Assembly: GCA_035625205.1 (NCBI GenBank)
Contig: DASPQB010000113.1
Coordinates: forward strand, 13,078 to 77,077
DNA length: 64,000 bases
Origin: Nitrospirota bacterium
Lineage (GTDB): Bacteria > Nitrospirota > UBA9217
Reading direction: 5' to 3'
Shown: piece by piece, positions 8,548 to 42,515 of the stretch
How positions within the stretch are numbered: position 1 is the stretch's first letter
How the letters are laid out: every line of letters starts with the position of its first letter
Program-made: the position numbers and the translations under genes
The notes under the pieces: generated by a model
What the model saw: only the letters and a program-made list of their open reading frames with translations
Told to the model about the DNA's origin: nothing
Databases searched by the model: none

Positions 8548-9170
8548 TATGAAGACGACCACCCACTCCGTTATAACTCACGTGCGCGAGGTTTATGATC
8601 AGCGGTTCCTCGAAACACCAATAGTTCATTCCGTATTCTTGCCACTGAAATCTGCTGCTTTTTGTTGTTTCATGCGATACCCATAAAAATACCCCATTGT
8701 AATTTTCGATGTATGCTATATTGAAGACATATAAGTTTCGCTTACCTTTTCTTAGTTTCGCAATGACAAATATCAGAATACGTACATATCGTGCACTCAG
8801 ATCCTTTTGATAAATAAGCAACAATGATAAAGCCAAACCCTTCGCGAGAAGGAGATGGAAATCCACGGGTCTTAAAAGACCAAAACGGCCGAGCTGCCGA
8901 AGAATGTGCTCTTTCCTCTTGCTTGGATTTCTTATTTAGCGCAGGATCAAACAATGTGGCAAGGTGGTAGGATCAGGATTCTCAACAGATTACCGAATGT
9001 GGATTACAAACTTTACGAGTCTACGCAAGCGTATTCTGAATCTGTATAATCGCTCTCTTCTCTTCGGCCGCAAACCCTGATGATGAAATGTTCAGCACTA
9101 TGTTTCGAGCAAGGAGAGCGTGCAGCACGGATAATTCGTAACCTACCGGAGGTTTAACACGAAACGGTTA

Positions 9171-26892: not shown

Positions 26893-28140
26893 ATGAAAAT
26901 CAGTATTATATCCGATACCCACTTTGGCCATGAGACCTGTACCCTTGTTCAGAAACAAGGTGATAGTATCGTCATGGGACCGAAGTATGACGCTTTTCTA
27001 AAAGCCGTAGGTACGGGAAACGATTACCTTGTTATGGTCGGGGACGTACTCGATTATTCCAGAGCGAGTTATGAACACGCCTATCAGTATGCCCAGGTAT
27101 TCTTTCAACAGATACAACGAGATGGGATTGCGCATCAAATAATCTATATCGCGGGAAATCACGACGCAGATATCTGGCATATCGTTCAGCAACAACGCGC
27201 CGTGATTAACAGACTGCTCCATGGGAAACTTCCGGTACCATTCGAGCACTCCGTGGCCGGAATCATCGACGACCGACAGGGCAGTCCCCACCGGGGTTTT
27301 ACTCTAAGCAGCGGTTCTGCAAAAACATCGGAACTAAAGTACGGCGGTATGTTCCTTGACTCTATAACCGGCACCACGAGTCCGACGGTATTCAATTTTG
27401 TCTTTCCGAGCCTCTATATCGTAACTGATGAGGAAAGCATCATCGTAACGCACGGGCACTATCTTGAACCTTATTGGTCTATTCTCGGAGAACTGTTAAT
27501 GAAGATCGTATCAGATGACTTGAATGTCAAAGAAATCGACTCTGAAACGATGGTGGAACTGAACTTCCCCTTCAATCAGCTCGGATGCACGGGCATAGGA
27601 CATACGGGAGTGTTGGCCAGTCTAGCACGCCAGATCGAACGGCAAATAAACGATCGGGACCTGGCGCATATTCAGAAATACCTGGATCGCTCGATCACAG
27701 TAATAGATAATGCCGCGAATTTAGGGTGGGTCAAAAAGGTGATCGCACATTACGCTATGCATAAAATGGAAGAACACATCCTGGACGCTCTTAAGAATTC
27801 ACAGAAGTCCCACTATGGCACGGACTTTCTTTCCAAACAAGAAGTACAGGATAGATTCCGACGGTTCTATAGTGCTTGTCTGCTTGAAATTAAAGCACTA
27901 AATGATGCGATGAATCTCGGCATGCCGAAGCCGCGGAAATTCGTTTTTGGCCATACTCACCGACCGATTGCGTGGAACGACCCTCAGCCACCCACTTTGG
28001 AAACAGCGTCTAAAGCTGCCCCACAAGCCGTGACGCTGTACAACACCGGCGGCTGGCTCGAGGATGAGGGGAAGTTTTGCGGCGCTGAAGTGTTCATCCA
28101 TGAAACAGAACGCGGGTTCTCGTCGGTTTCCATCCGATAA
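26893..28140 (+). CDS. Calcineurin-like metallophosphoesterase with an insertion of about 130 aa between motifs V and VI.
   Basis: The motif set is complete: DTHFG (I), GDVLD (II), GNHD (III), THGH (V), GHTH (VI). A long non-conserved stretch lies between V and VI. The protein is 415 aa. The gene sits alone, directly right of the integrase remnant. Confidence 0.85.
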   Translation: MKISIISDTHFGHETCTLVQKQGDSIVMGPKYDAFLKAVGTGNDYLVMVGDVLDYSRASYEHAYQYAQVFFQQIQRDGIAHQIIYIAGNHDADIWHIVQQQRAVINRLLHGKLPVPFEHSVAGIIDDRQGSPHRGFTLSSGSAKTSELKYGGMFLDSITGTTSPTVFNFVFPSLYIVTDEESIIVTHGHYLEPYWSILGELLMKIVSDDLNVKEIDSETMVELNFPFNQLGCTGIGHTGVLASLARQIERQINDRDLAHIQKYLDRSITVIDNAANLGWVKKVIAHYAMHKMEEHILDALKNSQKSHYGTDFLSKQEVQDRFRRFYSACLLEIKALNDAMNLGMPKPRKFVFGHTHRPIAWNDPQPPTLETASKAAPQAVTLYNTGGWLEDEGKFCGAEVFIHETERGFSSVSIR

Positions 28141-28665
28141 ACAAGGATATAATAATAAGTGAAACAAAGAGGAAAATTCGATAGTCGTATTGATGTTATT
28201 TTCAGAAGGGAATCTTGATTTTTTATGTCAGGTATTGGTACATATTGAGCCCTGCGATGGTCTTTGCGATGGATGTCAGCTGGATTGTTAGGCCTTACCG
28301 CACTTATTGTCTGTGTTCAAGGCGGGACACTAGGTCCTGCAATGAAATAAAGGAGGAAACTTCCAGAAAAAACTTGACATCCTTTTCGTCGTCTGATATA
28401 AGTCGCCAAGAGTCGTCATGTTGAATTATATCGCAATAATGATTCAAAAAGTCAGGAGGTGATGTCAATGGACGGTGGCCCAAGTAGCCTACATACCATG
28501 TGCGAGATAACTATCTCGATGCTGTCGGCAATAACGAAAAGAATGGGCCGTCCGTTGCTCGCCTCTCTCATGCCTCTCTCCTCCTAGTCCTAGCGGCCGT
28601 TCTCTTCTTTCCATTATTTCCGATAGTGCTTCCTGTGCCATGCAGAATACTCATAAGCGCATGGT

Positions 28666-28688
28666 CCGTGAATGTTTATTGTTCACGG
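28666..28688. promoter_or_regulatory. Inverted repeat CCGTGAA-N9-TTCACGG, 28 nt upstream of the porin start. Candidate metalloregulator operator.
   Basis: Perfect 7-bp arms. Its position fits an operator overlapping the promoter or 5'UTR of the porin / NRAMP operon. Confidence 0.3.
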
Positions 28689-28715
28689 TGCACTCAGACA
28701 GCGGAGGTACGGATA

Positions 28716-30098
28716 ATGGACTTCATCAAAATCATTTTGTTTTCTCGGCAACTTCTGAAAAAAAGAGCGTATTTTGCTGTAACATTGCTCATCGTGGCAG
28801 CCTGTGACACAGCGTCAGCTGAAACTGCGGCTGAACCTTCCTGGGCGCCCCAATTACTGGGGTTGCAAGCAACGATAATCTATCAGAACATGCCGCCGTT
28901 TCCAAGCCCCTATGAAGGACCGCACAGCCTGACGTTTGAACACGGCGAAGGACAGGGGCATACCGAAACGTATGGCGTCTACCTGGGCTCCCAGGTAGCC
29001 CCGACGCTCCAGGCCTACCTTGATATTGAACAGGCCCGCGGTAATGGGATCAGCAACGCCCTTGGGTTGGGCGGCATCACGGACGGTGATGTGATCAGGC
29101 AGGGTTCGGTTGATTTGGGACAGAACCCGTATATCGCGCGATTCTTCTTTCGCTACCTCGTTCCCTTGTCGCAGGGAAAAGATCCTGTAGCCACCCGGGG
29201 CATGGATCAGCTCCCCGGAAATGAGCCCGGGAGGAGGGTGGAGATGAAGATCGGGTTAATAGCTGCAACGGATGATTTCGATCTCAACCGCTACGCCAAC
29301 AATACGCGGACCCAATTTATGAACTGGGGGCTCATCAACAACACCGCGTGGGATTTTGCCGCAGACACCCGTGGGTATAGCTACGGTTTCGTTGTTGCTT
29401 TAGTCGAGCCGTCCTGGAGATTGGCGTTCGGCAGCTACCAAATGCCGACCATGGCCAACGGCAATACCTTTGATGGCCATATCGGACAGGCTCGTGGCGA
29501 TAACCTGGAACTCACGCTCAGGCCGAATCAGCAGGGCACGGTCCTTCGTTTTCTCGCCTACCGTAATCTTGCACGCATGGGAGATTATGCGGAAGCGATT
29601 GCGATAGGCGACGCAAGTTCTAGAACGCCGGACATTGCCGGGGATGACCGCCTCGGACGTTCAAAATACGGTTTTGGCATAAATCTAGAGCAGCCGCTCG
29701 CAGATGACGGCGAAACGGGGTTTTTTGCGAGGCTCGGCTGGAACGACGGCCATACGGAAGATTTTGCATTTACGGAAGTTGACCGGCACGTGAGCGCCGG
29801 CGTACAGGTGAGCGGTCTGCATTGGAGCCGGACGGACGACCGTTTAGGAGTCGCGTATGTATGGCACGGGATATCACCGGAGCATCGCGATTATCTGGCT
29901 GCAGGCGGCACTGGATTTATGCTCGGTGACGGCAAGCTCAACTATGGATTAGAACAGATCCTTGAAACTTATTACCGCGTTCAGCTTGGTCGATACGCAC
30001 AGCTAACCCCTGATTTTCAATACATACAGAATCCCGGCTATAACCGAGACCGAGGGCCCGTTGAAGTATATTCTCTGCGCGTTCGCCTTAGCTATTAA
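28716..30098 (+). CDS. OprB-family (carbohydrate-selective-porin-like) outer-membrane porin; MnoP-like by context.
   Basis: A GGAGG RBS precedes ATG 28716. Signal peptide MDFIKIILFSRQLLKKRAYFAVTLLIVAACDTASA. The body is OprB-like and ends with an aromatic C-terminal residue (..RVRLSY). The longer track ORF from 28500 lacks a signal peptide. Confidence 0.8.
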   Translation: MDFIKIILFSRQLLKKRAYFAVTLLIVAACDTASAETAAEPSWAPQLLGLQATIIYQNMPPFPSPYEGPHSLTFEHGEGQGHTETYGVYLGSQVAPTLQAYLDIEQARGNGISNALGLGGITDGDVIRQGSVDLGQNPYIARFFFRYLVPLSQGKDPVATRGMDQLPGNEPGRRVEMKIGLIAATDDFDLNRYANNTRTQFMNWGLINNTAWDFAADTRGYSYGFVVALVEPSWRLAFGSYQMPTMANGNTFDGHIGQARGDNLELTLRPNQQGTVLRFLAYRNLARMGDYAEAIAIGDASSRTPDIAGDDRLGRSKYGFGINLEQPLADDGETGFFARLGWNDGHTEDFAFTEVDRHVSAGVQVSGLHWSRTDDRLGVAYVWHGISPEHRDYLAAGGTGFMLGDGKLNYGLEQILETYYRVQLGRYAQLTPDFQYIQNPGYNRDRGPVEVYSLRVRLSY

Positions 30099-30121
30099 AT
30101 TATCGGGAAGGAGGATATTCA

Positions 30122-31393
30122 GTGAATATTTTTGCACGGCTTTATTACCGATACCGTAGGATGTCTAAGGCGATGCGGCTTTTTTTGCTTACCGCGGGCC
30201 CCGGAATTATCGTGATGGTTGCTGATAACGATGCCGGAGGGATCACGACTTACACTGCGACCGGCGCCAAATACGGGATGCACCTTTTGTGGTTTCTGAT
30301 TCTTCTGGGTCCTGTGGCTTATTATGTTCAGGAGATGACCGTACGCCTGGGCGCGGTCACCAAACGAGGACACGCAGAGGCCATCTTCTCGGCTTTCGGC
30401 CGTGTTTGGGGTTGGTTTTCTTTGCTGGACCTGGTTATGACCGACTGGCTGACTATGATCACCGAGTTCATCGGTATGACCGCGGCTTTGAGCATCTTCC
30501 ACATTCCCCCTGTTATAACGGTCGTGATCTGCTGGATTATCATGGGTGCCATGATCTCTACTGGTCGATACTGGACCTGGGAGAAAATCGCACTTTTATT
30601 CTGCGGTATCAATCTTATCTACATTCCGGCGGCGTTCATGGTGCACCCTTCGGTGAAGGACATTGCCTTTAACAGCACGGTTCCGCATTTTCCGCCGGGC
30701 GGCTTTACGAACGAGCTGTTCTTCCTCCTAATGGCCAATATCGGGACGACTATCGCACCGTGGATGCTGTTCTTCCAGCAGAGCTCGGTCGTGGACAAGG
30801 GTCTTCATGAGAAGGACATCAAGTTCGGGAAGATCGACACGGCGATTGGCGCGGTTCTGACAGTCGTTGTAGCGATGGTTTTAATAATCGTTTGCGGTAT
30901 ACTGCTTAATGGCGTGCCGGTGGATGATGCCGCGGTAGCGGCCAGACAGATCATGCCCCAAAGCAGCATCATCGGCACATTGATAGCAATAGGTCTTTTT
31001 GATGCAGGGCTGCTCGGCGCGATCTGCATTTCGCTTGCCAGTTCGTGGGCTTTTGGGGAAGTCTTCGGTTGGGCCCACTCGCTGAACGATAACGTCAGGG
31101 AAGCGCCATGGTTTTATGCCTATTATATCTTTGACCTGCTGCTTGCCGGAACTGTCGTGCTCATTCCGGGCGCGCCTCTCGTCCTGATCACGCTCTTTGT
31201 CCAGGTGATAGCGACAACCTTGCTGCCTGCCGCGTTAGTCTTTCTGATTCTGCTTCTGAACGACAAAAAGACGATGGGTGAGTATGTCAATACGCGGTGG
31301 CAGAACATCATTAATATCAGCATTGTCGCCATGGTTATTGCGCTTTCCACGATGTATGGCCTCAGCACCCTCTTTCCAGGTATGTTTAATTAG
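30122..31393 (+). CDS. NRAMP-family divalent metal (Mn2+/Fe2+) transporter (MntH-like).
   Basis: GTG start with GGAGG RBS. The translation ...LLTAGPGIIVMVADNDAGGITTYTATGAKYG... is characteristic of the NRAMP/MntH fold. About 11 TM segments. Confidence 0.88.
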   Translation: MNIFARLYYRYRRMSKAMRLFLLTAGPGIIVMVADNDAGGITTYTATGAKYGMHLLWFLILLGPVAYYVQEMTVRLGAVTKRGHAEAIFSAFGRVWGWFSLLDLVMTDWLTMITEFIGMTAALSIFHIPPVITVVICWIIMGAMISTGRYWTWEKIALLFCGINLIYIPAAFMVHPSVKDIAFNSTVPHFPPGGFTNELFFLLMANIGTTIAPWMLFFQQSSVVDKGLHEKDIKFGKIDTAIGAVLTVVVAMVLIIVCGILLNGVPVDDAAVAARQIMPQSSIIGTLIAIGLFDAGLLGAICISLASSWAFGEVFGWAHSLNDNVREAPWFYAYYIFDLLLAGTVVLIPGAPLVLITLFVQVIATTLLPAALVFLILLLNDKKTMGEYVNTRWQNIINISIVAMVIALSTMYGLSTLFPGMFN

Positions 31394-31408
31394 TCAAGGA
31401 GATTAGTC

Positions 31409-31585
31409 ATGATAAAGAATTTTTTCAATCACAGTTATGCGAAAATCCGCGAAATTAATAAAAAATACGAGACTCCCAGCATCGAGATGTCCAAGTGGGT
31501 AAAGTTCTCACTGTTGTTATTACGCCTCTATCTTTTTACTCTGATAGGCTTAATGCTATACAAATTCATTTCATTGCTAAAATAA
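31409..31585 (+). CDS. Candidate 58-aa membrane peptide between the NRAMP and MgtE_N/CBS genes (below ORF-track size cut-off).
   Basis: An AAGGAG RBS sits 7 nt before ATG 31409. The translation MIKNFFNHSYAKIREINKKYETPSIEMSKWVKFSLLLLRLYLFTLIGLMLYKFISLLK has one C-terminal TM helix. It is tightly packed between its neighbours. Confidence 0.4.
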   Translation: MIKNFFNHSYAKIREINKKYETPSIEMSKWVKFSLLLLRLYLFTLIGLMLYKFISLLK

Positions 31586-31597
31586 CGGGAGGGCCCC

Positions 31598-32875
31598 ATG
31601 AACACCCCGATCGGAAAGAAGCCAGAAAACATCGAAGCCGCGTATTACCTGAGCGATCTTATCGGTACCAAAGTTCTTAATGGCGATAAGAAAATAGGAA
31701 AACTCCGGGATATCGTCATTATTGAACAGGGAAAGCTCCCTGTCGTGACTCATTTTATGGTTCAACGGCCCTTTGGCCGTAAATCGCTCATGGTTCCCTG
31801 GGAGCGTGTGGTGGCTGTTAACGCAAGGCGGATCATGGTCGATCTCGAGGTCATAGAGCCTTTTGAGGGAGAACCTACGGAATCGCAGGTACTTTTGAAC
31901 GATCATATCGTGGACAAAAAGGTTCTTGATATGGACGACAACGAGGTCGATGTAGTATATGACATCAAACTGGCATTACGTAATCGAGTGATGTATGTAA
32001 CTGATGTTGACTTCAGCAAACACGCTCTGTTTAAGAGGCTTGGCCTCAAACCGCTCATGAAACTGTTGTTTGGCGATTCCGACTTCATCAAAAAGGATAC
32101 GCTCTCCTGGTCCTATGTCCAGCCGTTGCCAAAGCATATCGGCAGCTTTAATGGCGATGTGAAACTCACGGTCCTGAAGGAGAAGCTTCTGGAGATTCCC
32201 CCGGTCGATCTCGCGGACATCCTGGAGGAACTGAGCGGAGAGCAACGGCTTGCCATCTTTAATCAACTGGAAACCGAGCATGCGTCGGATACTCTGGAAG
32301 AAATCGAACCGCGGGTTCAGCGCCAGATCATCTCTTCTATCAAAAGGGATCGGGCTGCGGAACTGATTAATGCCATGACCCCTGCACAGGCGGCTGATAT
32401 TATAGCCATCCTTCCCGGTTCAGAAGCCGACGAAATTCTTAAGCTGATAGATAAGGAAAATGCCGAAAAGATTCACTACATGCTGGACAAGCAGGACGAG
32501 AAGATCATAAACTTCACGACGTCGCATTTTATCAAGCTTCCGCCCCATACGCGAGTGAGCCGGGTTCTCGAACAGTTTCGCGAGATCGCGCGGGACATGG
32601 ACGAGATCATGTACCTTTACATTGTCGATGAAAAAAACACTTTGCTGGGCGTGGTAGATATCAAAGAAGTGTTAAAGGCCAATGGTGACGATACACTGGC
32701 CGATATCATGACGACGAACGTCATCGACTTGAATCCGGAAAATACACTCCTTGAAGCCGCCGAAATGTTCTCAAGATACAGCTTCCGGGCTATTCCCGTG
32801 ACTGATGAGAATAAGATCATTCTGGGTCTGATCCCTTATCGCGACATTATGAACCTGAAGCATCGATTCATTTGA
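31598..32875 (+). CDS. Soluble PRC-barrel / MgtE-N-terminal-domain / tandem-CBS protein (no membrane domain).
   Basis: PRC-barrel-like N-terminus (LSDLIGTKVLNGDKKIGKLRDIVIIEQG). MgtE_N-like middle (PVDLADILEELSGEQRLAIFNQLETEHASDTLEEIEP...AADIIAILPGSEADEILKLIDKENAEKI). Two CBS-like motifs near the C-terminus. No hydrophobic segments. Confidence 0.75.
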   Translation: MNTPIGKKPENIEAAYYLSDLIGTKVLNGDKKIGKLRDIVIIEQGKLPVVTHFMVQRPFGRKSLMVPWERVVAVNARRIMVDLEVIEPFEGEPTESQVLLNDHIVDKKVLDMDDNEVDVVYDIKLALRNRVMYVTDVDFSKHALFKRLGLKPLMKLLFGDSDFIKKDTLSWSYVQPLPKHIGSFNGDVKLTVLKEKLLEIPPVDLADILEELSGEQRLAIFNQLETEHASDTLEEIEPRVQRQIISSIKRDRAAELINAMTPAQAADIIAILPGSEADEILKLIDKENAEKIHYMLDKQDEKIINFTTSHFIKLPPHTRVSRVLEQFREIARDMDEIMYLYIVDEKNTLLGVVDIKEVLKANGDDTLADIMTTNVIDLNPENTLLEAAEMFSRYSFRAIPVTDENKIILGLIPYRDIMNLKHRFI

Positions 32876-33350: not shown

Positions 33351-34037
33351 ATGAGCGTGCGTTGTTTGATCATAGAGGACGAAGCGGATACTGCTCGCTT
33401 TATCTGCAATGGCCTCAAGGAAGCGGGTTATACCGTAACGTGGTGCAGGAAAAGCGTGGAGGGACTCGATATTGCCACCAGTGAACAATGGGACATCATC
33501 ATCCTCGACCGAATGCTGCCGGGAAACATAGATGGACTTTCGATTGTCAAAACCCTGAGGGAACTCGGTAAAACGACCCCTGTTCTGATCCTAAGCGCCT
33601 TGGCAAGTCTGGACGAACGTGTGCGCGGGCTGCACGAGGGCGGCGATGATTATCTCACCAAGCCCTTTGCCTTTGCCGAATTGTTCGCACGGGTAGAGGC
33701 GCTTACTCGCAGAGCCAAGCTGTCGGAGGACGTTGGAGAGTTGCGGATCGCCGATCTTACACTCGATCTGCGGGCGCGCAAAGTTGAGCGCGGGGGGAAG
33801 CCGATCCCCCTCCAACCCCGTGAATTTCGGTTGCTCGAATACCTGGTTAGGCACCAGGATCAAATTGTCACGCGCACGATGCTGTTGGAGTCTGTCTGGG
33901 AATATCGCTTCGATCCCCAGACGAATGTGATCGATGTCCAGATCAGCCGCCTGCGCAGCAAGATTGATAAGGGTTTCTCGCCTCCACTTCTGCACACGGT
34001 ACGTGGTGCTGGCTATATGGTGAGTGACCATGACTAA
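33351..34037 (+). CDS. OmpR-family response regulator (REC + winged-helix).
   Basis: 228 aa. REC stretches ...IIILDRMLPG... and ...YLTKPF.... C-terminal ...LLEYLVRHQDQIVTRTMLLESVWEY...VIDVQISRLRSKID.... Confidence 0.9.
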   Translation: MSVRCLIIEDEADTARFICNGLKEAGYTVTWCRKSVEGLDIATSEQWDIIILDRMLPGNIDGLSIVKTLRELGKTTPVLILSALASLDERVRGLHEGGDDYLTKPFAFAELFARVEALTRRAKLSEDVGELRIADLTLDLRARKVERGGKPIPLQPREFRLLEYLVRHQDQIVTRTMLLESVWEYRFDPQTNVIDVQISRLRSKIDKGFSPPLLHTVRGAGYMVSDHD

Positions 34038-35391
34038 GCTCTGGAGGTCGGTCGCATTTCGCCTGGCGCTCTTTTGCGGTGTGCTCGTCATCGGTTCAAC
34101 TGCTGTTTTTTCCGCTATTTTTTACTTCGGGACCATCAGAAAGCTGGACCAGCAGGTCAACCAGAAAATAGCGTCCATCACAGAACGGCTTGCAACGAAT
34201 TTCGAAGCCAGGGGATTTGAGTCGCTGCAGCGGGAAATACAAAGTCTCCTTACCGACAAGTTCGATGTCGATACAGAGATTTATTTCCTCGTCGGACCCG
34301 ATGGACAACAAGTCGTCGGCAATCTGTCGGACTGGAAAGAGACTGCAGCACCGTTTGATGAACCGATCAATCGGGAAGTCATTCGCGACGGACTCCCTTC
34401 GTCGGCCCGGCTGGTGCTGCACAAACTGCCGAATGGCGCCGTCCTTATCGTCGGTCGCGACATGAAGGATCTGAACGGTATCGCGACGCTAATATGGCAC
34501 ACCATTGGTTTCGGCAGCGTCTCTGCCTTGGTGTTGGCCATTGGCGGCACAATCCTCTTTCGTTATCTGCTGGAACGCCGCGTCGGTGCGATCCGTCAAA
34601 CAGTCGAGGAAATCGAGGCAGGGAATCTGGCTAAACGAATACCTGTTTCCGGCGTCGAGGATGAATTTGCCCGCCTGAGCGACGACATGAACCGTATGCT
34701 CGATAGAATCGAGCACTTGATGGATGGTGTTAGGCACGTTTCCAACACGATTGCGCACAACGTGCGAACTCCTCTTGGCCAAATCCGCGGGCACCTCGAC
34801 GAGTCGCTTCGTGCAGGTGCCAATGCATCACGGCTTGCCGAGGCAGCTGAATTCTCTATAGCGCAAGTTGATGGCTTGACAAGTGTTCTTGACAAGCTTC
34901 TTCAGATCGCTGAATCTGAATCCGGCACACGGCGCCAGCCCTTCAAACCCGTGATCTTGCGCGAGGTGGTCACCACGGTCGTCGAACTCTATGATGCCAT
35001 AGCAGAGGCGCAAGGCATCGTTCTGACTACAAACATCGAAGGCGACCCGAAGACAATCGGAGACAAGGACCTTCTGGTGAGCGCGCTTGCCAACCTACTC
35101 GATAATGCGCTCAAATACGGGGGACGTTCTGTGACAGTCTGTGTGCGCGAAACACCGGAGGCGGGAACTGTTTCACTCGTGGTTCAGGACGACGGGCCTG
35201 GGATTCCGCCTGAGGAGCAGCCCAAGGTGATCCAGCGCTTCTACCGTCTTGATCAGAGAGTACCCGGCACGGGCCTCGGTCTTTCGATCGTGGCCGCCAT
35301 TGCTCATCTTCATGAAGCTGCGCTCCACCTGGAGGATGCCGGTCCGGGACTTCTGGCCCGCATTGTCCTGCCCCTCTGCGTCTCAATCTGA
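34024..35391 (+). CDS. Sensor histidine kinase (2 TM, HAMP, HisKA, HATPase_c).
   Basis: Its start overlaps the stop of the regulator gene. H-box HNVRTPLGQIRGHLD. N-box ...LLDNALKYG.... G-boxes DDGPGIP and GTGLGLSIV. Confidence 0.9.
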   Translation: MTMTKLWRSVAFRLALFCGVLVIGSTAVFSAIFYFGTIRKLDQQVNQKIASITERLATNFEARGFESLQREIQSLLTDKFDVDTEIYFLVGPDGQQVVGNLSDWKETAAPFDEPINREVIRDGLPSSARLVLHKLPNGAVLIVGRDMKDLNGIATLIWHTIGFGSVSALVLAIGGTILFRYLLERRVGAIRQTVEEIEAGNLAKRIPVSGVEDEFARLSDDMNRMLDRIEHLMDGVRHVSNTIAHNVRTPLGQIRGHLDESLRAGANASRLAEAAEFSIAQVDGLTSVLDKLLQIAESESGTRRQPFKPVILREVVTTVVELYDAIAEAQGIVLTTNIEGDPKTIGDKDLLVSALANLLDNALKYGGRSVTVCVRETPEAGTVSLVVQDDGPGIPPEEQPKVIQRFYRLDQRVPGTGLGLSIVAAIAHLHEAALHLEDAGPGLLARIVLPLCVSI

Positions 35392-35658
35392 TTCTACAAG
35401 CGAACTTATTCTGTCCAGTCCACGGCCTTCATCCGTAATTCAGCCGCTTCTCAAACCTTTTCTCAACCTTTCCAAATGGTAATCTAACGGAAATAGTCCT
35501 GTAATGTTCTGGCTGGTATTATAACATCAGGTTTGTGTTACGCGTTAAAATCAAGATGAGATAGCATTTTTACGGGGCCAAAGGCAATAAATTCGGACTT
35601 CCTGACGTCGCGATGCCAGGAGATGTGAATTTCTTAACCGGCCAGAGAAGCTAAGTCT

Positions 35659-36345
35659 ATGAGCATGCATTGTTTGATTATAGAAAATGAAGCGGATACC
35701 GAACGTTTTATACGCACCGGTCTCAGGGAAGTTGGTTATATAGTTACTTCGTGCAGGGAAAGTGCGGAAGGTTTGCATTATGCCACCTCCAGACAATGGG
35801 ATATAATAATTCTTGACAGAATGTTGCCGGGCAACGTCGACGGCATGTTTATCGTCAAGACGTTGAGAGCATTGGGAAAAACTACTCCGGTTCTGATTCT
35901 ATGCTCCCTCACAAGTTGGGACGAGCGTGTCCGCAGCCTGCGTGAGGGCGGCAATGATTACCTCACCAAGCCATTCCCCTTCTCTGAATTGTTGGCACGA
36001 GTGGATGGCTTGACTCGGCGGTCCAAGCTCTTGGAGGACGTGGGAGAGCTGAGGGTGGCAGATCTCAAACTGGACTTGCGGACGCGCAGGGTAGAGCGCA
36101 AAGGTAAACCGATCTTCCTGCAGCCCCGCGAATTTCGCTTGCTCGAATATCTGGTCATGCATGAGGATCAAATCGTCACGCGGACGATGCTGCTGGAATC
36201 AGTCTGGGACTATCATTTTATCGATCGGCCTAACGTCATTGATGTCCAGATTAGCCGTCTGAGGAGCAAAATTGACAAGGGTTTCTCTCCGCCGCTTGTG
36301 CACACGATACGCGGCGCGGGCTATATGGTAAGCGAGGATTGCTAG
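35659..36345 (+). CDS. Second OmpR-family response regulator, a paralogue of 33351..34037 (about 70% identical), with no kinase immediately downstream.
   Basis: The translation MSMHCLIIENEADTERFIRTGLREVGY...LLEYLVMHEDQIVTRTMLLESVWDY...VIDVQISRLRSKIDKGFSPPLVHTIRGAGYMVSEDC matches the first regulator almost residue for residue. Confidence 0.9.
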   Translation: MSMHCLIIENEADTERFIRTGLREVGYIVTSCRESAEGLHYATSRQWDIIILDRMLPGNVDGMFIVKTLRALGKTTPVLILCSLTSWDERVRSLREGGNDYLTKPFPFSELLARVDGLTRRSKLLEDVGELRVADLKLDLRTRRVERKGKPIFLQPREFRLLEYLVMHEDQIVTRTMLLESVWDYHFIDRPNVIDVQISRLRSKIDKGFSPPLVHTIRGAGYMVSEDC

Positions 36346-36437
36346 CAATTGAATCAAACATTCGGACGACATCCTTGCATGAGCTTAAATGAATTAAAAC
36401 TCTGGAAAGTCAGTTAGTTCTCTAACGAGGTAGATCC

Positions 36438-37475
36438 ATGCGATTCAAGGGAAGTAATCTATTGGGCTTGGGTGCAGTGATATTACTCGCCTTCCTGACC
36501 GGCGTATATTTCGCTAAAAGTTCTGATATGCCACTGAAATCAGGGTTTGGCTCCGGGCAGGAAAATGTTGCAGAAGGACAGACGCCATCTGATCTGTCTT
36601 CGAGCCGCGAATCAGACGAACCTCTCGCTTCCCAAAGCTTAACATTGGGAGAGACACAGCTCAAATCCATCAAGGTCGCACCGGTCGGAAAGCATCCCTT
36701 CGCGGTTGAGCGGGAAGCGGTTGGAAGCATCGATTTCGATGAAGATCTTTCGGTTGTCCAGGCTGAATCCGCCTTGATCGGCGCTGCGGCGACCTTCGAA
36801 GTGACCAGCAAGGAACTTGCGCGCGCCAAGGCCCTTTACGCGACCAATGTTGGCGTGTCGCAAAAGGAGCTGGATCAGGCCATTTCCGATAAGCAAACCG
36901 CCGAGGGCGCCTTCAAAGCCGCACACGATGCAGTCCGCGTCCTTGGCAAGACGGAGACCGAAATTGATCACATGATCGCATCGGGCAAGATTGAACCTGC
37001 CCTGGTCAGCCGGGTAGCCGTTGCGTATGTCTCCGAAAGCGATACGCCGCTTCTTCATGTAGGGCAGCCGGTTACCGTCAAGGTCATGGCCTATCCTGAC
37101 CGCGTGTTTGAAGGTAAAGTCACGAAGATATACGCGGTCGTTGAACCGGATACCCATAGAACCAAGATCCGCGCCAAAATTGCTGATCGCAAGAATGAGC
37201 TGCGTCCCGGAATGCTGATCAGTGTCATGATTCGAATTCAAGAACCCGTGGAAGCCAACGCGATACCGGTCACTGGCGTGGTCCGCGAAGGCGATGGTAC
37301 GATGACGGTATGGTTCACTACCGACCGCCATCGCTTCATACGAAAACCGGTCAAGCTCGGTCTGCAAAAAGACGGCTGGTATCAGATAGTCGAAGGTCTG
37401 CAGCCAGGCGAACTGGTCGTTACTGAAGGCGGCATATTCCTCAGCAACATGTTGGAAGCGCCGCCAACTGATTAG
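36438..37475 (+). CDS. Efflux RND periplasmic adaptor subunit (membrane-fusion protein, CzcB/CusB-like).
   Basis: 345 aa with an N-terminal TM anchor. Biotinyl-lipoyl-like and beta-barrel stretches (..GKVTKIYAVVEPDTHRTKIRAKIADRKNELRPGMLISVMI..). Immediately followed by the pump gene. Confidence 0.88.
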   Translation: MRFKGSNLLGLGAVILLAFLTGVYFAKSSDMPLKSGFGSGQENVAEGQTPSDLSSSRESDEPLASQSLTLGETQLKSIKVAPVGKHPFAVEREAVGSIDFDEDLSVVQAESALIGAAATFEVTSKELARAKALYATNVGVSQKELDQAISDKQTAEGAFKAAHDAVRVLGKTETEIDHMIASGKIEPALVSRVAVAYVSESDTPLLHVGQPVTVKVMAYPDRVFEGKVTKIYAVVEPDTHRTKIRAKIADRKNELRPGMLISVMIRIQEPVEANAIPVTGVVREGDGTMTVWFTTDRHRFIRKPVKLGLQKDGWYQIVEGLQPGELVVTEGGIFLSNMLEAPPTD

Positions 37476-37477
37476 CC

Positions 37478-40400
37478 ATGTTTAAGTCTCTCATAGCATT
37501 TTGCCTGAGCCGCCGAGCGATTGTGGTTGCCGCGCTGATACTATTTGCCGGCGCTGCGTTTCTCGCGTATCAAAAGCTCAACATCGAGGCCTATCCGAAT
37601 CCAGCACCGGTCATCCTGGAGATTACCGCGCAGGCGCCAGGCCTGTCTGCCGAGGAGATGGAGAAGTACTACTCGCGCCCAATCGAAATCGGGCTCTACA
37701 CGACTCCCGGCATTGCTGTCATCCGCTCCACTTCGTTTTACGGCCTGTCTTTTGTCCGTGTCGTTTTTCACTATGGGGTGGATTATCACTTCGCTTACAG
37801 CCAGGCGGCCATCGCGCTGCAACAAAATGTCAGTCTTCCGGGCAATCTGGTGCCCACCATTCAACAGAACAGCGGGACCGGGGAAATCTTTCGTTACCAG
37901 GTGGTGGGCCCGAAGCATTTCGGAATAGCCAACCTCCGCACCATTCAGGACTGGATCGTAGCGCGCCGGTTATTGACCATTCCCGGCATCGTTGCGGTCA
38001 ACAGTTGGGGCGGTCCAACAAAGCAATTCGAGGTAGAAGCTGATCCCCGCAAATTGGAGGCGTACAACGTCACGGTGCCCCAAATCCTGACCGCGCTGGG
38101 CAACGCTAACATCAATGTGGGCGGAAGAGAAATCCGCATCGGCCAGCAATCAATCAACATCCGTGGCGTCGGCCTGATTGACGACGGTGGCAATGATGAT
38201 TTGACCCAAGGCTTCAAGGTTGGTGACATTGAAAACGTTGTCCTGACTCAGTCGAACGGGGTTCCTGTACAGGTAAAGGATGTTGCGAAGGTGCACGTAG
38301 GCAATAGGCCGAGGCTTGGAATCTGGGGCCACGACCTGGAGGACGACGGGGTGGCGGCGATTGTTGTCATGAGCCGCGTCGAACGCGCTCATGACATGCT
38401 GCCTAAGGTCAGAGCTGAAATTGACACGATGAATCACGATGGAAGCCTGCCGCCGGGAGTCAAGCTTGTCCCCTTTTATGATCGAGGATCGCTGATCAAC
38501 GTCACGACCCGCACCGTGTTGCACAACCTCATCTTCGGATGCCTTCTTGTCCTCTTCATTCAATGGATTTTCCTCGGCAATTTCCGCAGCGCGATCATCG
38601 TCGGACTGAACATCCCCTTTGCGCTTTTTTTCGCAATCATTCTCCTCGTGATTCAAGGCGAAAGCGCGAACCTGCTTTCGGTCGGTGCCATTGATTTCGG
38701 CATCATCGTGGATTCAGCGGTGATACTTGTCGAGAATATCTTCCGCACTTCCCAAGGGCGCCCGGAGGAAAGACAGGGTATGCTCCAAAATCTTGCCGAA
38801 GGCTTTTGGGGGCCGGACCCGACGAAAATCTCACTGCATACGACTTCGGCCCACGCATGGACAGATCGCTTGCGGCTTATTCTGGTCAGCGCGATACAAG
38901 TGGACAAGGCGGTTTTTTTCTCAACCTTGATCACCGTGGCAGCCTTCGTACCGCTTTTTACGATGCAGGGAGTCGAGGGAGCGATATTCGGCCCCATGGC
39001 GCGCACCTACGGGTACGCATTGGCGGGCGCCTTGATCGCAACGTTCACCGTCACGCCTGTCCTTGCGTCCTTGCTGCTCCCCGAGCGTGTGAAGGAAACC
39101 GAGACCATCTTCGTCCGCGCGCTACACCGCCTGTATGACCCGGCGCTGCGTTTCGCCCTCGCCCACCGCGCGATCATGGTGATGATTGGAATTGCTTTTA
39201 TCGCCGTGGCCGGATTTCTGATACCGCGTCTCGGAAGCGAATTCCTGCCTCACCTCGAAGAAGGCAATTTTTGGATACGCGCTTCCATGCCGATGACACT
39301 TTCGCTGGAAGACGGCGAGGCAGCGACAAAAAAAATGCGGGCGGTTCTCCTGAGATTTCCAGAGGTCACTACCGTGACGTCTCAACACGGCCGGCCGGAT
39401 GACGGCAGCGACGCGGCACCATTTTCCAACGTCGAGCTGTTCGCGGTACTCAAGCCGCCCGACCAATGGCGCACTGGCATGAACAAGGAAAAACTGACCG
39501 AACAGATCAACGCGGATCTTGAGCACGAGCTGCCCGGGGTCTTCTTCAACTTCTCTCAGTATATCCAGGATAACGTCGAGGAGGCCATTTCAGGCGTTAA
39601 AGCCGACAATTCTGTCAAGATCGTAGGCCCCAATCTCGAAACATTGACCAACCTGGCCGAGCAGGTAAGGGACCAGATGAGCAAGGTACGCGGTATTGCC
39701 GACCTCGGTATTTTCCCTGTCCTCGGTCAGCCGAATCTGAACATCAAGGTAGACCGCGCCAAAGCCGCGAGGTATGGCCTGAATACCGGTGACATCAACA
39801 CGGTCATTCAAGCAGCGCTGGGCGGTACGGTAGCGACATCGGTATTGGAGGGGGACCGCCAGTTCGACCTGGTTGTCCGCTACCCTCCCGCATACCGTGA
39901 CAGCATAGAGAGAATCCGCAACGTGAAGGTGGCCTATCAAACAGGGAGCGGCGCCAATGCTTACCTTCCCTTGCGTGAACTGGCAACGATCACGTTGGAT
40001 ACGGGAGCGGCCTGGATTTATCACGAGAGCATGCAGCGCTTCATCCCGGTCAAGTTCAGTGTGCGCGGTCGCGACCTCGGTGGCACTGTTGCCGAAGCAC
40101 AGGAGCGCATCGCGCAAAACGTGAAACTTCCGAGCGGCTATCGACTAATCTGGGCAGGCGAGTTCGGAGATCTGCAGCACGCTAAAAGGCGCTTGGAAGT
40201 AATCGTGCCGATCAGCCTCGTGCTCATCCTGGGGTTGCTCTACGCCACGTTCAATTCGCTCCGCGACAGTCTGATGGCGCTCGCAGGAATCCCCTTCGCG
40301 GTTGCCGGCGGTATATTGGCACTCTACATCTCCGGTCTTAATTTCAGCATCTCCGCCGCCGTTGGTTTTGTATCACTCTTTGGGGTATCAGTCATGAACG

Positions 40401-40702
40401 GCATCCTGATGATTACCTATTACAACCAGGAAAGGCTTCGCGGAGGCAGGCCTCTTGAAGCGATGAACCACGCCGCCTCAACCCGTATGCGGCCGCTACT
40501 CATGACGAGTCTCTCCGCCTGCATCGGCCTCTTCCCTGCAGCGATTTCGACCGGGATCGGAAGCCAGGTGCAGCGACCGCTTGCCACCGTGATCGTAGGC
40601 GGCATGTTTATCGGTCCAATCATCCTGCTGGTAGTTGTGCCGCCGCTACAAATGCTCTTCCTGGGGAAAAAGCATGAAACGACAAAGATAACTGCCGAGT
40701 AA
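37478..40702 (+). CDS. Heavy-metal-efflux (HME) RND permease, CzcA/CusA family.
   Basis: The 1074-aa N-terminus MFKSLIAFCLSRRAIVVAALILFAGAAFLAYQKLNIEAYPNPAPVILEITAQAPGLSAEEMEKYYSRPIEIGL is typical CzcA-family. 12 TM segments and two large periplasmic loops. Confidence 0.93.
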   Translation: MFKSLIAFCLSRRAIVVAALILFAGAAFLAYQKLNIEAYPNPAPVILEITAQAPGLSAEEMEKYYSRPIEIGLYTTPGIAVIRSTSFYGLSFVRVVFHYGVDYHFAYSQAAIALQQNVSLPGNLVPTIQQNSGTGEIFRYQVVGPKHFGIANLRTIQDWIVARRLLTIPGIVAVNSWGGPTKQFEVEADPRKLEAYNVTVPQILTALGNANINVGGREIRIGQQSINIRGVGLIDDGGNDDLTQGFKVGDIENVVLTQSNGVPVQVKDVAKVHVGNRPRLGIWGHDLEDDGVAAIVVMSRVERAHDMLPKVRAEIDTMNHDGSLPPGVKLVPFYDRGSLINVTTRTVLHNLIFGCLLVLFIQWIFLGNFRSAIIVGLNIPFALFFAIILLVIQGESANLLSVGAIDFGIIVDSAVILVENIFRTSQGRPEERQGMLQNLAEGFWGPDPTKISLHTTSAHAWTDRLRLILVSAIQVDKAVFFSTLITVAAFVPLFTMQGVEGAIFGPMARTYGYALAGALIATFTVTPVLASLLLPERVKETETIFVRALHRLYDPALRFALAHRAIMVMIGIAFIAVAGFLIPRLGSEFLPHLEEGNFWIRASMPMTLSLEDGEAATKKMRAVLLRFPEVTTVTSQHGRPDDGSDAAPFSNVELFAVLKPPDQWRTGMNKEKLTEQINADLEHELPGVFFNFSQYIQDNVEEAISGVKADNSVKIVGPNLETLTNLAEQVRDQMSKVRGIADLGIFPVLGQPNLNIKVDRAKAARYGLNTGDINTVIQAALGGTVATSVLEGDRQFDLVVRYPPAYRDSIERIRNVKVAYQTGSGANAYLPLRELATITLDTGAAWIYHESMQRFIPVKFSVRGRDLGGTVAEAQERIAQNVKLPSGYRLIWAGEFGDLQHAKRRLEVIVPISLVLILGLLYATFNSLRDSLMALAGIPFAVAGGILALYISGLNFSISAAVGFVSLFGVSVMNGILMITYYNQERLRGGRPLEAMNHAASTRMRPLLMTSLSACIGLFPAAISTGIGSQVQRPLATVIVGGMFIGPIILLVVVPPLQMLFLGKKHETTKITAE

Positions 40703-40713
40703 AGGGAAGCACC

Positions 40714-40986
40714 ATGAAAGCATTGTTTTTTTGGATATCAGCTTTAGCAATGGCTATCGGGCTATCAGCGGCTCATGCTGCCTTTGCCAAACCAAACAAC
40801 GTCGCTCAGGCCGTTGCAACCCAAGAATCCGACAATCTCCGGACGCAACATCGGGAAAATACGGTCACAGGACCCCATAGACTATACGTTGCAGCCCAAA
40901 AAACCCGTAAATCCGGACGTAGCGACACGAAAACCAAAAAAAGCAGTTCATGCATCAATGGAACAACGATTCATCGTAAGCATTAG
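40714..40986 (+). CDS. Candidate small secreted protein between the pump and outer-membrane-factor genes.
   Basis: AAGGGAAG RBS. Signal peptide MKALFFWISALAMAIGLSAAHAAFA. 90 aa with no family recognised. It could be spurious, but its position mimics the small periplasmic proteins of some metal-efflux operons. Confidence 0.35.
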   Translation: MKALFFWISALAMAIGLSAAHAAFAKPNNVAQAVATQESDNLRTQHRENTVTGPHRLYVAAQKTRKSGRSDTKTKKSSSCINGTTIHRKH

Positions 40987-41006
40987 CGCTCTCTTAAGGA
41001 AATACC

Positions 41007-42515
41007 ATGTCCTCAAAACGCTTCCACTTCATCGCTGCAACGTTGTCAATTGTTGCCCTCGTCTCAGGCTGCGCCGTGGGTCCGAACTTCCATCGCCCAG
41101 CGCCGCCCGCGATTAACGGGTATACGCCTGAGCCGCTGACTGCTACGACTTCTACCGCCAACGTAGCTGGCGGAGAGGAACAATGCTTTGTCATGGGTAT
41201 GGACATTCCTAAACAGTGGTGGGTATTATTCAAGTCGCCGCCGCTCAATGCGCTGGTGGAAAAATCGCTCAAGACCAACCCAACGATCGAGGCAGCGAAG
41301 GCAGCCTTGCGCCAGGCCCGGGAAAACGTCGCCGCCCAGGTGGGCTCTTACTATCCCGCCGTCCAGGCCGGTTATTCAGCCAGCCGCACGAAGGACTCGG
41401 GCACCATTTCGCCCGTGCTGTTTTCGGGCCAGGAACCTTACACGCTCCATACCGCTCAGGTGAGTGTGGGCTTTGCGCCAGACGTGTTCGGCGGCAACCG
41501 GCGGCAGGTAGAGTCTCTGACTGCCCAGGCCGATTTCCAGCGCTTCCAGCTCGAGGCGACTTATCTCACGCTGACGTCGAATGTGGTGGCTGCGGCCATC
41601 CAGGAGGCTTCGTTACGAGCTCAGATTTCCTCAACGCAGAGCATTATCAAGATCGAGACTGAGATGCTCGACCAGCTGCACCAGCAGTTCAAAGTCGGTT
41701 ATGCTGCTGGGCTGGATGTGGCTGCGCAGGAAGCTGCCCTTGCCCAGGTGCAGCAGACCTTGCCGCCATTACAAAAGCAGCTAGCGCAAACTCGCGATCT
41801 GCTTGTGGCTCTTGCCGGCCGCTTTCCAAATGAGGAGTTGGAAGAGAAGTTCGAGCTTGCGGCGCTCAGCCTTCCGCAGGAGCTGCCGGTGAGCCTCCCC
41901 TCCAAGCTTGTGGAACAGCGTCCGGACGTGCGCGCTGCCGAAGAGCAGGTGCATTCCTCCAGCGCCCAGGTCGGTGTGGCGGTCGCCGCCATGCTGCCGA
42001 ATATTACCCTGAGCGCCGATTTGGGAAGTACCGCTACCGCGATCAGCCATTTATTTACCCCCGGAAACGGTTTCTGGAGCCTGGCCGGTGATCTGACGCA
42101 GCCGATCTTTCAGGGGGGCACCTTGCTGCACAGGAAACGGGCTGCTGAAGCAGGCCTGGATCAGGCTCAGGCTGAGTATCGTAACACGGTGATCGCCGCC
42201 TTCCAAAACGTGGCGGACACACTCCATGCGATCCAATCCGATGCCGATGCCCTGAAGGCAGCAGTGGCTTTCCAACAGGCCGCCAAACGAAGCCTCGACC
42301 TAGCACAGAAGCAGTTCGAAGTCGGCTACGTCAATTATTTATCGTTGCTCGCCGCCGAACAGGCGTATCATCAGGCAGTTATCAATCTTGTACAGGCTAA
42401 GGCTAATCGTTTTGCCGACACTGCAGCATTATTTATGGCGCTTGGCGGCGGCTGGTGGAACGGCCCGGACGACACATCTGCGCCAACGGCATCAGAGGCT
42501 TCCGGTCGCCGTTGA
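41007..42515 (+). CDS. Outer-membrane efflux factor lipoprotein (NodT/TolC family, CzcC-like).
   Basis: Lipobox LVSGCAV. Two TolC-like repeat halves. 502 aa. Confidence 0.88.
   Translation: MSSKRFHFIAATLSIVALVSGCAVGPNFHRPAPPAINGYTPEPLTATTSTANVAGGEEQCFVMGMDIPKQWWVLFKSPPLNALVEKSLKTNPTIEAAKAALRQARENVAAQVGSYYPAVQAGYSASRTKDSGTISPVLFSGQEPYTLHTAQVSVGFAPDVFGGNRRQVESLTAQADFQRFQLEATYLTLTSNVVAAAIQEASLRAQISSTQSIIKIETEMLDQLHQQFKVGYAAGLDVAAQEAALAQVQQTLPPLQKQLAQTRDLLVALAGRFPNEELEEKFELAALSLPQELPVSLPSKLVEQRPDVRAAEEQVHSSSAQVGVAVAAMLPNITLSADLGSTATAISHLFTPGNGFWSLAGDLTQPIFQGGTLLHRKRAAEAGLDQAQAEYRNTVIAAFQNVADTLHAIQSDADALKAAVAFQQAAKRSLDLAQKQFEVGYVNYLSLLAAEQAYHQAVINLVQAKANRFADTAALFMALGGGWWNGPDDTSAPTASEASGRR

Follow-up and report, generated by a model that had tools for sequence, protein, structure and literature searches.

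Within a stretch of 64,000 nucleotides (nt) of genomic DNA from a Nitrospirota bacterium (contig DASPQB010000113.1; hereafter the window), four genes lie head to tail on the forward strand. They encode an OprB-family outer-membrane porin, a transporter of the SLC11/NRAMP family (the carrier), a single-pass membrane protein of 58 amino acids (aa), and a soluble protein (the sensor) in which PRC, MgtE_N and CBS domains are combined (Table 1). The genes are separated by gaps of only 23, 15 and 12 nt, and each is preceded by a Shine-Dalgarno (SD) sequence. Upstream, the porin gene is preceded by a probable promoter and a leader that contains a short upstream open reading frame (uORF). The gene content, order and domains had been described in the same way by a first-pass annotation, and all of these elements were found where it had placed them by Pfam and open reading frame (ORF) analyses. 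The locus is thus a real operon, correctly described but mislabelled as a Mn2+ system; it is an NRMT-type cassette.

Table 1. Features of the operon and its surroundings (positions are those of the window; SD, Shine-Dalgarno sequence; uORF, upstream open reading frame).
Feature	Position	Strand	Basis
Probable sigma-70 promoter: TTGACA (28374-28379), 17-nt spacer, TATAAG (28397-28402)	28374..28402	+	Sequence and conservation
Conserved structured 5' leader	28446..28715	+	Identity and consensus fold
Helix P1: uORF SD and AUG (28455-28481) paired with 28545-28567	28455..28567	+	Consensus fold
uORF, 39 codons (MDGGPSS...LLASLMPLSS)	28468..28587	+	SD AGGAGG at 28454-28459, 8 nt upstream
Anti-SD/anti-AUG strand TCCATTATTTCCG...CTTCCTGT, pairing with porin SD and start codon (28695-28720)	28610..28636	+	Consensus fold
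Palindrome CCGTGAA-N9-TTCACGG, hairpin helix 8 of the leader	28666..28688	+	28 nt ahead of the porin start
OprB-family outer-membrane porin, 460 aa	28716..30098	+	Pfam PF04966
NRMT-type SLC11/NRAMP transporter, 423 aa, GTG start, SD GGAAGGAGG	30122..31393	+	Pfam Nramp
58-aa single-pass membrane protein	31409..31585	+	ORF without Pfam family
Soluble PRC / middle beta domain / MgtE_N / CBS-pair protein, 425 aa	31598..32875	+	Pfam
OmpR-type response regulator and HAMP histidine kinase (membership in the system uncertain)	33351..35391	+	Pfam

The carrier matches the Pfam Nramp family (E 2.9e-71 at 30122-31393), and its scores against the NCBIfam MntH and Nramp models are far under their cut-offs. 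Classical NRAMPs have DxxN in transmembrane helix 1 (TM1) and A/CxxM in TM6, whereas the Mg2+-transporting NRMT clade has DxxG and TxxA/T (PMC8806188). In the carrier, TM1 reads NDAGG, i.e., D-A-G-G within 'VADNDAGGITTY', and TM6 reads IGTTIAPWM; both positions therefore follow the NRMT pattern, and a Trp is found where classical NRAMPs have the coupling His. The carrier lacks the canonical transition-metal site (DPGN / A-x-x-M-P-H), as Ala takes the place of the selectivity Met and Gly that of the Asn. Both motifs (NDAGGI and IGTTIAPWM) are identical to those of EleNRMT from Eggerthella lenta (Ramanadane et al. 2022, eLife, PMC8806188; 7QIA), which is also the closest solved structure (206 bits, E 7.8e-60, compared with at most 65 bits for classical NRAMPs). 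Among orthologues of the carrier, DxxG is kept in 69 of 70 and the TM6 motif in 71 of 71. Because of this ion site, the Trp in place of His and the closeness to EleNRMT, the carrier is assigned, on its sequence, to the NRMT branch of NRAMP and not to the manganese type. EleNRMT transports Mg2+ and Mn2+ but not Ca2+, and its transport is not coupled to protons (PMC8806188).

The cassette to which the carrier belongs is widespread. A scan of one genome per species yielded 382 relatives of the sensor, and the best 80 loci were fetched for neighbourhood counts; they span Nitrospirota, Desulfobacterota, Acidobacteriota, Proteobacteria, Chlorobiota, Ignavibacteria, Omnitrophota, Melainabacteria and other bacteria, as well as Methanomicrobiales archaea. 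A carrier gene (product 67-91% identical) lies directly upstream of the rest of the cassette in 78 of the 80 loci, the remaining two contigs being cut, and the order transporter, peptide, sensor is constant wherever the contig is long enough, with gaps mostly of ~10-20 nt. The 58-aa gene is found between transporter and sensor in all 79 loci in which that DNA is present, in Bacteria and Archaea alike. No other universal neighbour emerged from an all-against-all clustering of the 2359 ORFs of the 80 loci; recurrent neighbours were porin (8-10 loci), CDF (5) and P-type ATPase (3-5) genes and lineage-specific synteny. Thus, the co-conservation of all four genes, by which the first-pass annotation was to be judged, is very strong for the carrier, the peptide and the sensor, whereas the porin is only an occasional member (10 of 80 loci).

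The metal handled by the cassette can be approached through its riboswitches. In seven of the 80 loci, three from Acidobacteriota and four from Geobacteraceae or other deltaproteobacterial metagenome-assembled genomes, an M-box (RF00380, 98-143 bits) precedes an orthologous cassette whose transporter is 68-80% identical to that of the window and shares its ion-site motifs. No conserved small ORF was found between M-box and carrier in these loci, and in Rfam scans of the window and of 22 loci the yybP-ykoY Mn2+ riboswitch stayed without a match at gathering score. The position of M-boxes ahead of orthologous cassettes is the main argument for Mg2+, which is probably the principal substrate of the carrier. 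The same control of orthologues indirectly supports the prediction that the carrier of the window moves Mg2+ without proton coupling. The earlier reading of the locus as a Mn2+ acquisition module of the MnoP/MntH type is not upheld by these observations: the DPGN/MPH site is absent, an NRMT site is found instead, and orthologous cassettes stand behind Mg2+-responsive M-boxes.

The sensor has been found by Pfam to contain a PRC domain (PF05239; E 7.5e-9, 35.9 bits, cut-off 21.2), an MgtE_N domain (E 1.1e-22, 80.9 bits) and two CBS domains (E 1.3e-19, 70.6 bits). There is no Pfam match to the MgtE membrane domain, the protein stopping 5 residues past CBS2, and none to a DNA-binding domain. TIGR00400 scores 132.8 bits, under its cut-off of 232.75, and covers the cytosolic part alone. 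A profile of the sensor family matches the cytosolic domain of Thermus thermophilus MgtE (2YVY) over residues 191-419 (E 1.3e-32), and the best Foldseek matches of an AlphaFold2 (AF2) model (mean predicted local distance difference test score, pLDDT, 78.5) are MgtE cytoplasmic domains (E ~1e-19). In this model, a PRC barrel (residues 14-81, strands with pLDDT 80-93) is followed by a second beta/alpha region (100-175), a helical N domain and the CBS pair. The description of the protein as the sensing half of MgtE without its pore is therefore borne out. Within the N domain, many acidic positions do not vary across the family. Sensors are 59-93% identical over many phyla, and that of the window has a 100% identical counterpart in a Nitrospirota metagenome-assembled genome; in its sub-family, they are 415-449 aa long and end without a hydrophobic tail. 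It is reasonable to regard the protein as an MgtE-like Mg2+ sensor over its C-terminal 230 residues, which, by analogy with MgtE, would gate the carrier. Most NrmT-group genes adjoin a gene that has homology to MgtE's N-terminal cytoplasmic domain, and either feedback regulation or a chaperone role has been proposed for this fragment (Shin et al. 2014, PLoS Genet, PMC4072509). No later work on the MgtE-like partner of NRMT carriers was found in the literature searched.

The 58-aa protein is the least familiar member of the cassette. Neither Pfam nor NCBIfam has a family for it, and its annotation is 'hypothetical' everywhere. Its ORF is coding, since identities at the first, second and third codon positions are 0.93, 0.98 and 0.71; together with its occurrence in 79 of 79 loci, this corroborates the earlier suggestion that the peptide is real. 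The consensus is ..K[IV]REINxKYxxPxIEMSxxVKxSLLxLRxYLxxLVxLLxYKFITLL, in which the motif IN.KY..P is found in 74 of 74 copies. Seven Lys/Arg residues precede the helix and one follows it, from which a cytoplasmic N-terminus (N-in topology) is predicted. A search without word index returned a family of 137 representatives at 50% clustering, three of which are fusions with the transporter. In P0411 and P0368, the C-terminus of the transporter continues into an extra hydrophobic helix and the peptide module, whereas in P0431 the peptide takes the place of TM11; all three are topologically compatible with an N-in peptide. The P0411 fusion (L123, 13-987) lies on a real contig, and the sensor is the next gene.

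A different design is seen in the lineage of EleNRMT, which was itself characterised as an isolated protein. At a locus whose carrier is 91% identical to EleNRMT, a homologous PRC/MgtE_N/CBS gene lies upstream of the carrier gene; its product is 26% identical to the sensor of the window over the full length and carries a hydrophobic membrane helix of its own at the C-terminus. No homologue of the 58-aa gene was found there in a six-frame reading of both flanks, and no M-box with our own M-box model. Thus, it appears that a membrane tether goes with the sensor in both designs, either fused or separate, as far as can be judged from the one sensor-first lineage seen. The strict order of the three genes and the fusions followed by a sensor gene suggest that the products form one complex, in which the 58-aa peptide might bridge sensor and carrier.

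The porin matches OprB (PF04966) almost throughout (E 9e-39, 134.3 bits, cut-off 22.9, profile positions 27-371 of 372). Its gene starts at ATG 28716, with GGAGG at 28703-28707; the longest ORF, which begins at 28500, was considered and rejected as the gene. The N-terminus of the product (28716-28800) is a hydrophobic signal sequence in which LIVAAC fits a lipobox and the following ASA-ETAA fits signal peptidase I. Porin homologues of 34-85% identity adjoin the cassette in the 10 loci mentioned above, which belong to at least four phyla; four lie upstream, five downstream and one is divergent. In a locus from Geobacteraceae (L041), a second M-box (9294-9462) ends 86 nt before the start of the porin homologue ORF (9548). 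As this M-box directly precedes it, the L041 porin is a riboswitch-controlled Mg2+ gene. This case and the recurrence in 10 loci argue for a functional link between the porin and the cassette, of which the porin is an optional member. A literature search turned up no connection of OprB-type porins with Mg2+ or the M-box. Directly upstream of leader-porin units, a gene for an MntP-like putative Mn efflux protein is found in L104 (218-865), and CDF cation-efflux genes are found in L083 (1982-2734) and L115 (10793-11488), which hints that the porin may serve transition metals too.

In the window, the place of the M-box is taken by a leader of another kind. The promoter (CTTGACA-N17-TATAAG) is kept in 8 of 13 related leaders, the DNA around it being not alignable. 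The leader is 80-82% identical to those of L001 and L083, compared with 60-71% at third codon positions of the neighbouring genes, and in its consensus fold 94.6% of cells are paired, compared with 35-47% in slid controls. No Rfam family was recognised, either in the whole window at gathering score or in a permissive scan of 28100-28800, which gave noise only. Our own covariance model (R2) found the 5' module in Nitrospirota loci alone. A metagenome scan with a 19-mer from the anti-SD/anti-AUG strand of the leader yielded ten further leaders, each ahead of a porin gene; since the 19-mer was the search pattern, the invariance of this block among them is by construction. The window contains no second copy of the 19-mer.

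The uORF had been noted in the first-pass annotation, and it is real: it has an SD sequence and is intact in 11 of 13 close relatives, in which the stop position is constant although the codon is TAG, TAA or TGA. One relative carries an in-frame deletion of 3 nt. More distant Nitrospirota leaders keep an MDGGP-type start in uORFs of 27-36 codons, and at distant loci the 5' module (MDGGP-type uORF and helix P1) lies directly upstream of the carrier. In P1, which was analysed on 14 leaders, 92.5% of cells are paired (slid controls, 37-52%), and five pairs have changed on both sides, a number equalled by 1 of 500 shuffles. Helices 5 and 6, which constitute the anti-SD pairing, are 96.7% and 90.5% paired.

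The palindrome was formerly thought to overlap the promoter and to be a possible operator shared with other metal genes. However, the conserved promoter lies ~265 nt further upstream, and the palindrome forms a hairpin within the 5' leader, inside the domain closed by the anti-SD pairing. Neither does it recur: it is single in the window, where chance would give 0.24 matches even if up to two mismatches were allowed, and no second copy accompanies another metal gene there. One stem position is A-U, G-U or G-C depending on the leader, with L102 compensatory, and in L093 the RNA still pairs through U-G wobbles, at the cost of the symmetry of the DNA. Two leaders, L100 and L109, have lost the hairpin by deletion. 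Both palindrome and uORF are more than chance, as both are conserved in related genomes. A role of the palindrome as a transcriptional terminator was rejected because no U-run lies behind it.

The leader presumably does here the job that the M-box does in other cassettes. Copies of the MDGGP-uORF leader also stand ahead of small HMA_2 (heavy-metal-associated-like) genes in L009 (3913-4024), L083 (7477-7591) and L084 (3389-3503), which suggests a small leader-sharing regulon in Nitrospirota. In the closest relative (L001, 4400-5129), a tandem duplication has placed a promoter, a uORF leader and the first porin codons ahead of a second promoter, leader and full porin gene.

On balance, we favour reading the operon, from sequence comparisons, as a system for regulated uptake of divalent cations, most likely Mg2+ with Mn2+ as a probable second substrate, in which the peptide would link sensor and carrier. 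An OprB-type channel would pass the hydrated ion over the outer membrane, and the NRMT-type SLC11 carrier, as a member of the proton-uncoupled Mg2+/Mn2+ branch, would take it over the inner membrane. The soluble sensor would read cytoplasmic Mg2+, possibly together with a nucleotide, and would throttle the carrier in the replete cell, as in MgtE. The 58-aa accessory subunit, with its N-terminus in the cytoplasm, may lie against the carrier and offer its conserved N-terminal segment as the docking point of the sensor, whereas the structured leader would set expression, the ribosome-binding sites of both uORF and porin being sequestered in helices. A bolder claim, which we advance only tentatively and consider possible rather than probable, has two joint parts. 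In the first, the 58-aa protein would be a third subunit that the system cannot do without, holding an MgtE-type Mg2+ sensor at the NRMT carrier and so completing a three-part ligand-gated SLC11 transporter. In the second, the 'MDGGP' uORF leader would be a new class of metal-responsive translational riboregulator, a stand-in for the M-box that controls a regulon of the porin, the NRMT cassette and HMA_2 genes.

Several observations weigh against this interpretation. The window itself yielded no M-box, either at gathering score, when 28100-28800 was scanned permissively, or when our own model was used, and among relatives it is limited to the 7 of 80 loci. The transporter of A. capsulatum was better at complementing a defect in Mn2+ than one in Mg2+, and in the one published test the rescue was unchanged when the MgtE-like gene was co-expressed (PMC4072509). 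EleNRMT can also carry Mn2+ (PMC8806188). The Nitrospirota leader precedes HMA_2 genes as well, and leader-porin units have CDF and MntP-like efflux genes as neighbours; a transition metal would fit this context as well as Mg2+ does. The covariation in the leader rests on closely related sequences, and the three transporter-peptide fusions could be rare accidents.

Some of these points speak for a Mn2+ acquisition module like MnoP/MntH, with porin and NRAMP importing Mn2+ and the CBS protein sensing it. In favour of such a module are Mn2+ transport by EleNRMT, the rescue of a Mn2+ uptake mutant (and the weak rescue for Mg2+) by the NrmT-group protein of A. capsulatum, the MntP-like gene directly upstream of the L104 leader-porin unit and the CDF genes in L083 and L115, and the leader ahead of HMA_2 genes. 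Nonetheless, it is unlikely: the carrier lacks the transition-metal site DPGN / A-x-x-M-P-H, orthologues are found under the Mg2+ M-box and none under yybP-ykoY (22 loci and the window scanned), and the partner protein is homologous to a Mg2+ sensor. Moreover, the A. capsulatum gene belongs to a different sub-family, as its gene order is sensor first.

It might also be supposed that the carrier does import Mg2+ but that the sensor serves to chaperone or buffer metal in the cytoplasm, or to regulate expression, and that the peptide stabilises the carrier as an independent subunit. Shin et al. raise a chaperone role, and co-expression was without effect (PMC4072509); PRC-barrel domains are known in proteins that bind macromolecules, the N-terminal PRC region weakly matches RimM, and in the AF2 model the domains of the sensor are loosely connected (predicted template-modelling score, pTM, 0.40). 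However, the sensor of the EleNRMT lineage is membrane-anchored and encoded beside the carrier gene, which better suits a membrane-proximal partner than a soluble chaperone, and the strict three-gene order and the fusions followed by a sensor gene suggest one complex; expression control is further disfavoured by the lack of a Pfam DNA-binding domain in the sensor. This alternative therefore seems rather improbable. Least credible is the combination of an ordinary sugar-type OprB porin that lies beside the cassette by chance with a palindrome that acts as a DNA operator. In its favour, a porin is missing beside 70 of the 80 cassettes, OprB porins take their family name from selectivity for carbohydrates, a dimeric regulator could be bound by a perfect 7-N9-7 palindrome, and a two-component system is encoded 475 nt downstream. 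However, the porin recurs in 10 loci of at least four phyla in three positions, once (L041) with an M-box of its own, and the palindrome lies ~265 nt downstream of the conserved promoter, passes through G-U intermediates that break DNA symmetry but keep RNA pairing, and is missing from two otherwise intact leaders.

The operon can be compared with several known systems. The first-pass annotation had regarded the coupling of a split sensor domain to an NRAMP importer as an unusual arrangement outside the described system. However, the operon resembles the NrmT/NRMT operons of Shin et al. 2014 (PMC4072509), in which an NRMT-clade carrier is encoded beside a soluble homologue of the MgtE N-terminal domain; some of these operons stand behind M-box riboswitches. 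The pairing of an NrmT gene with a gene for an MgtE cytoplasmic domain is thus already known as a genomic association, the function of which was left open in 2014. In the examples of Shin et al., the sensor lies upstream of the carrier ('mgtE-nramp operons', Acp2976/2977), whereas the order in the window is carrier, 58-aa peptide, sensor. That paper says nothing of the peptide, the PRC barrel, a link with the porin or the leader of Nitrospirota. What appears to be new are the 58-aa family, the fused-tether design of the EleNRMT lineage, the recurrent OprB porin and the structured Nitrospirota uORF leader.

In the MgtE channel, the N and CBS domains bind Mg2+ and shut the pore. The sensor resembles the MgtE of T. 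thermophilus (2YVX/2YVY) in that its N domain and CBS pair are homologous in sequence and fold, but it lacks the MgtE membrane domain, is a separate polypeptide to which a PRC barrel and another beta domain have been added, and is partnered with an unrelated LeuT-fold carrier. The MnoP/MntH system of Bradyrhizobium japonicum is said (from work by Hohle et al. in 2011) to combine an outer-membrane channel with a classical Mn2+/H+ NRAMP importer. The window likewise has an outer-membrane channel and an importer of the NRAMP family, but its carrier is of the NRMT type, with DAGG / APW in place of DPGN / MPH. The leader, in turn, occupies the M-box position of orthologous cassettes. It also contains a short ORF, as does the long 5' leader of the Mg2+-uptake gene mgtA, in which the mgtL uORF is found. 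However, unlike M-box and mgtA leaders, it has no Rfam match, and it sequesters ribosome-binding sites instead of forming a terminator. Small membrane proteins that modulate metal transporters are known as well (MgtS, MgtR, MntS, and KdpF). Like them, the 58-aa protein has fewer than 60 residues, spans the membrane and is encoded alongside a cation transporter, to which it presumably binds; unlike them, with which it shares no sequence similarity, it is conserved from Archaea to Proteobacteria and is always encoded in the middle between carrier and sensor.

Beyond the operon, the sensor gene is followed by a gap of 475 nt and then by a response-regulator/histidine-kinase pair. Copies ~91% identical are found near the leader-porin units of L115 and L109, where they are differently arranged. 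The pair may be a regulator of the operon, or the shared context may be inherited synteny only. It forms part of a block (33351-42515) composed of a response regulator, a histidine kinase, a second response regulator and an HlyD/AcrB/OEP efflux operon. This block is present at ~91% identity in L115, in which the CDF gene and leader-porin unit come after it and not before. Elsewhere in the window, a c-di-GMP-I riboswitch (RF01051; 47.6 bits, E 3e-6) lies at 8822-8901 on the forward strand; ~270 nt past it, a protein of 692 aa with NHL, lactonase and Flg_new repeats is encoded (9171-11249). Among the relatives, a group II intron (RF02003, RF00029) was found in L058 (11403-12158, reverse strand), a few kb downstream of an acidobacterial cassette.

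The basic picture of the locus is unchanged, i.e., it is a metal-uptake operon of a known family. Nonetheless, it yields two candidates: an OprB-type porin by which Mg2+ might cross the outer membrane, and a lineage-specific leader as a possible new metal-responsive RNA. Since Mg2+ import by NRMT carriers is not coupled to protons, the membrane potential would by itself suffice to overfill the cell. Within this context, the locus and its relatives give a testable hypothesis on how NRMT carriers are restrained, namely that the carrier, the 58-aa adaptor and the sensor form one complex; both the very wide conservation and the natural fusions speak for it. If it is true, MgtE-style gating would have been transplanted onto an unrelated LeuT-fold carrier, with the tether supplied either as a separate micro-protein, as in the sub-family of the window, or, in the EleNRMT lineage, as a part of the sensor itself.

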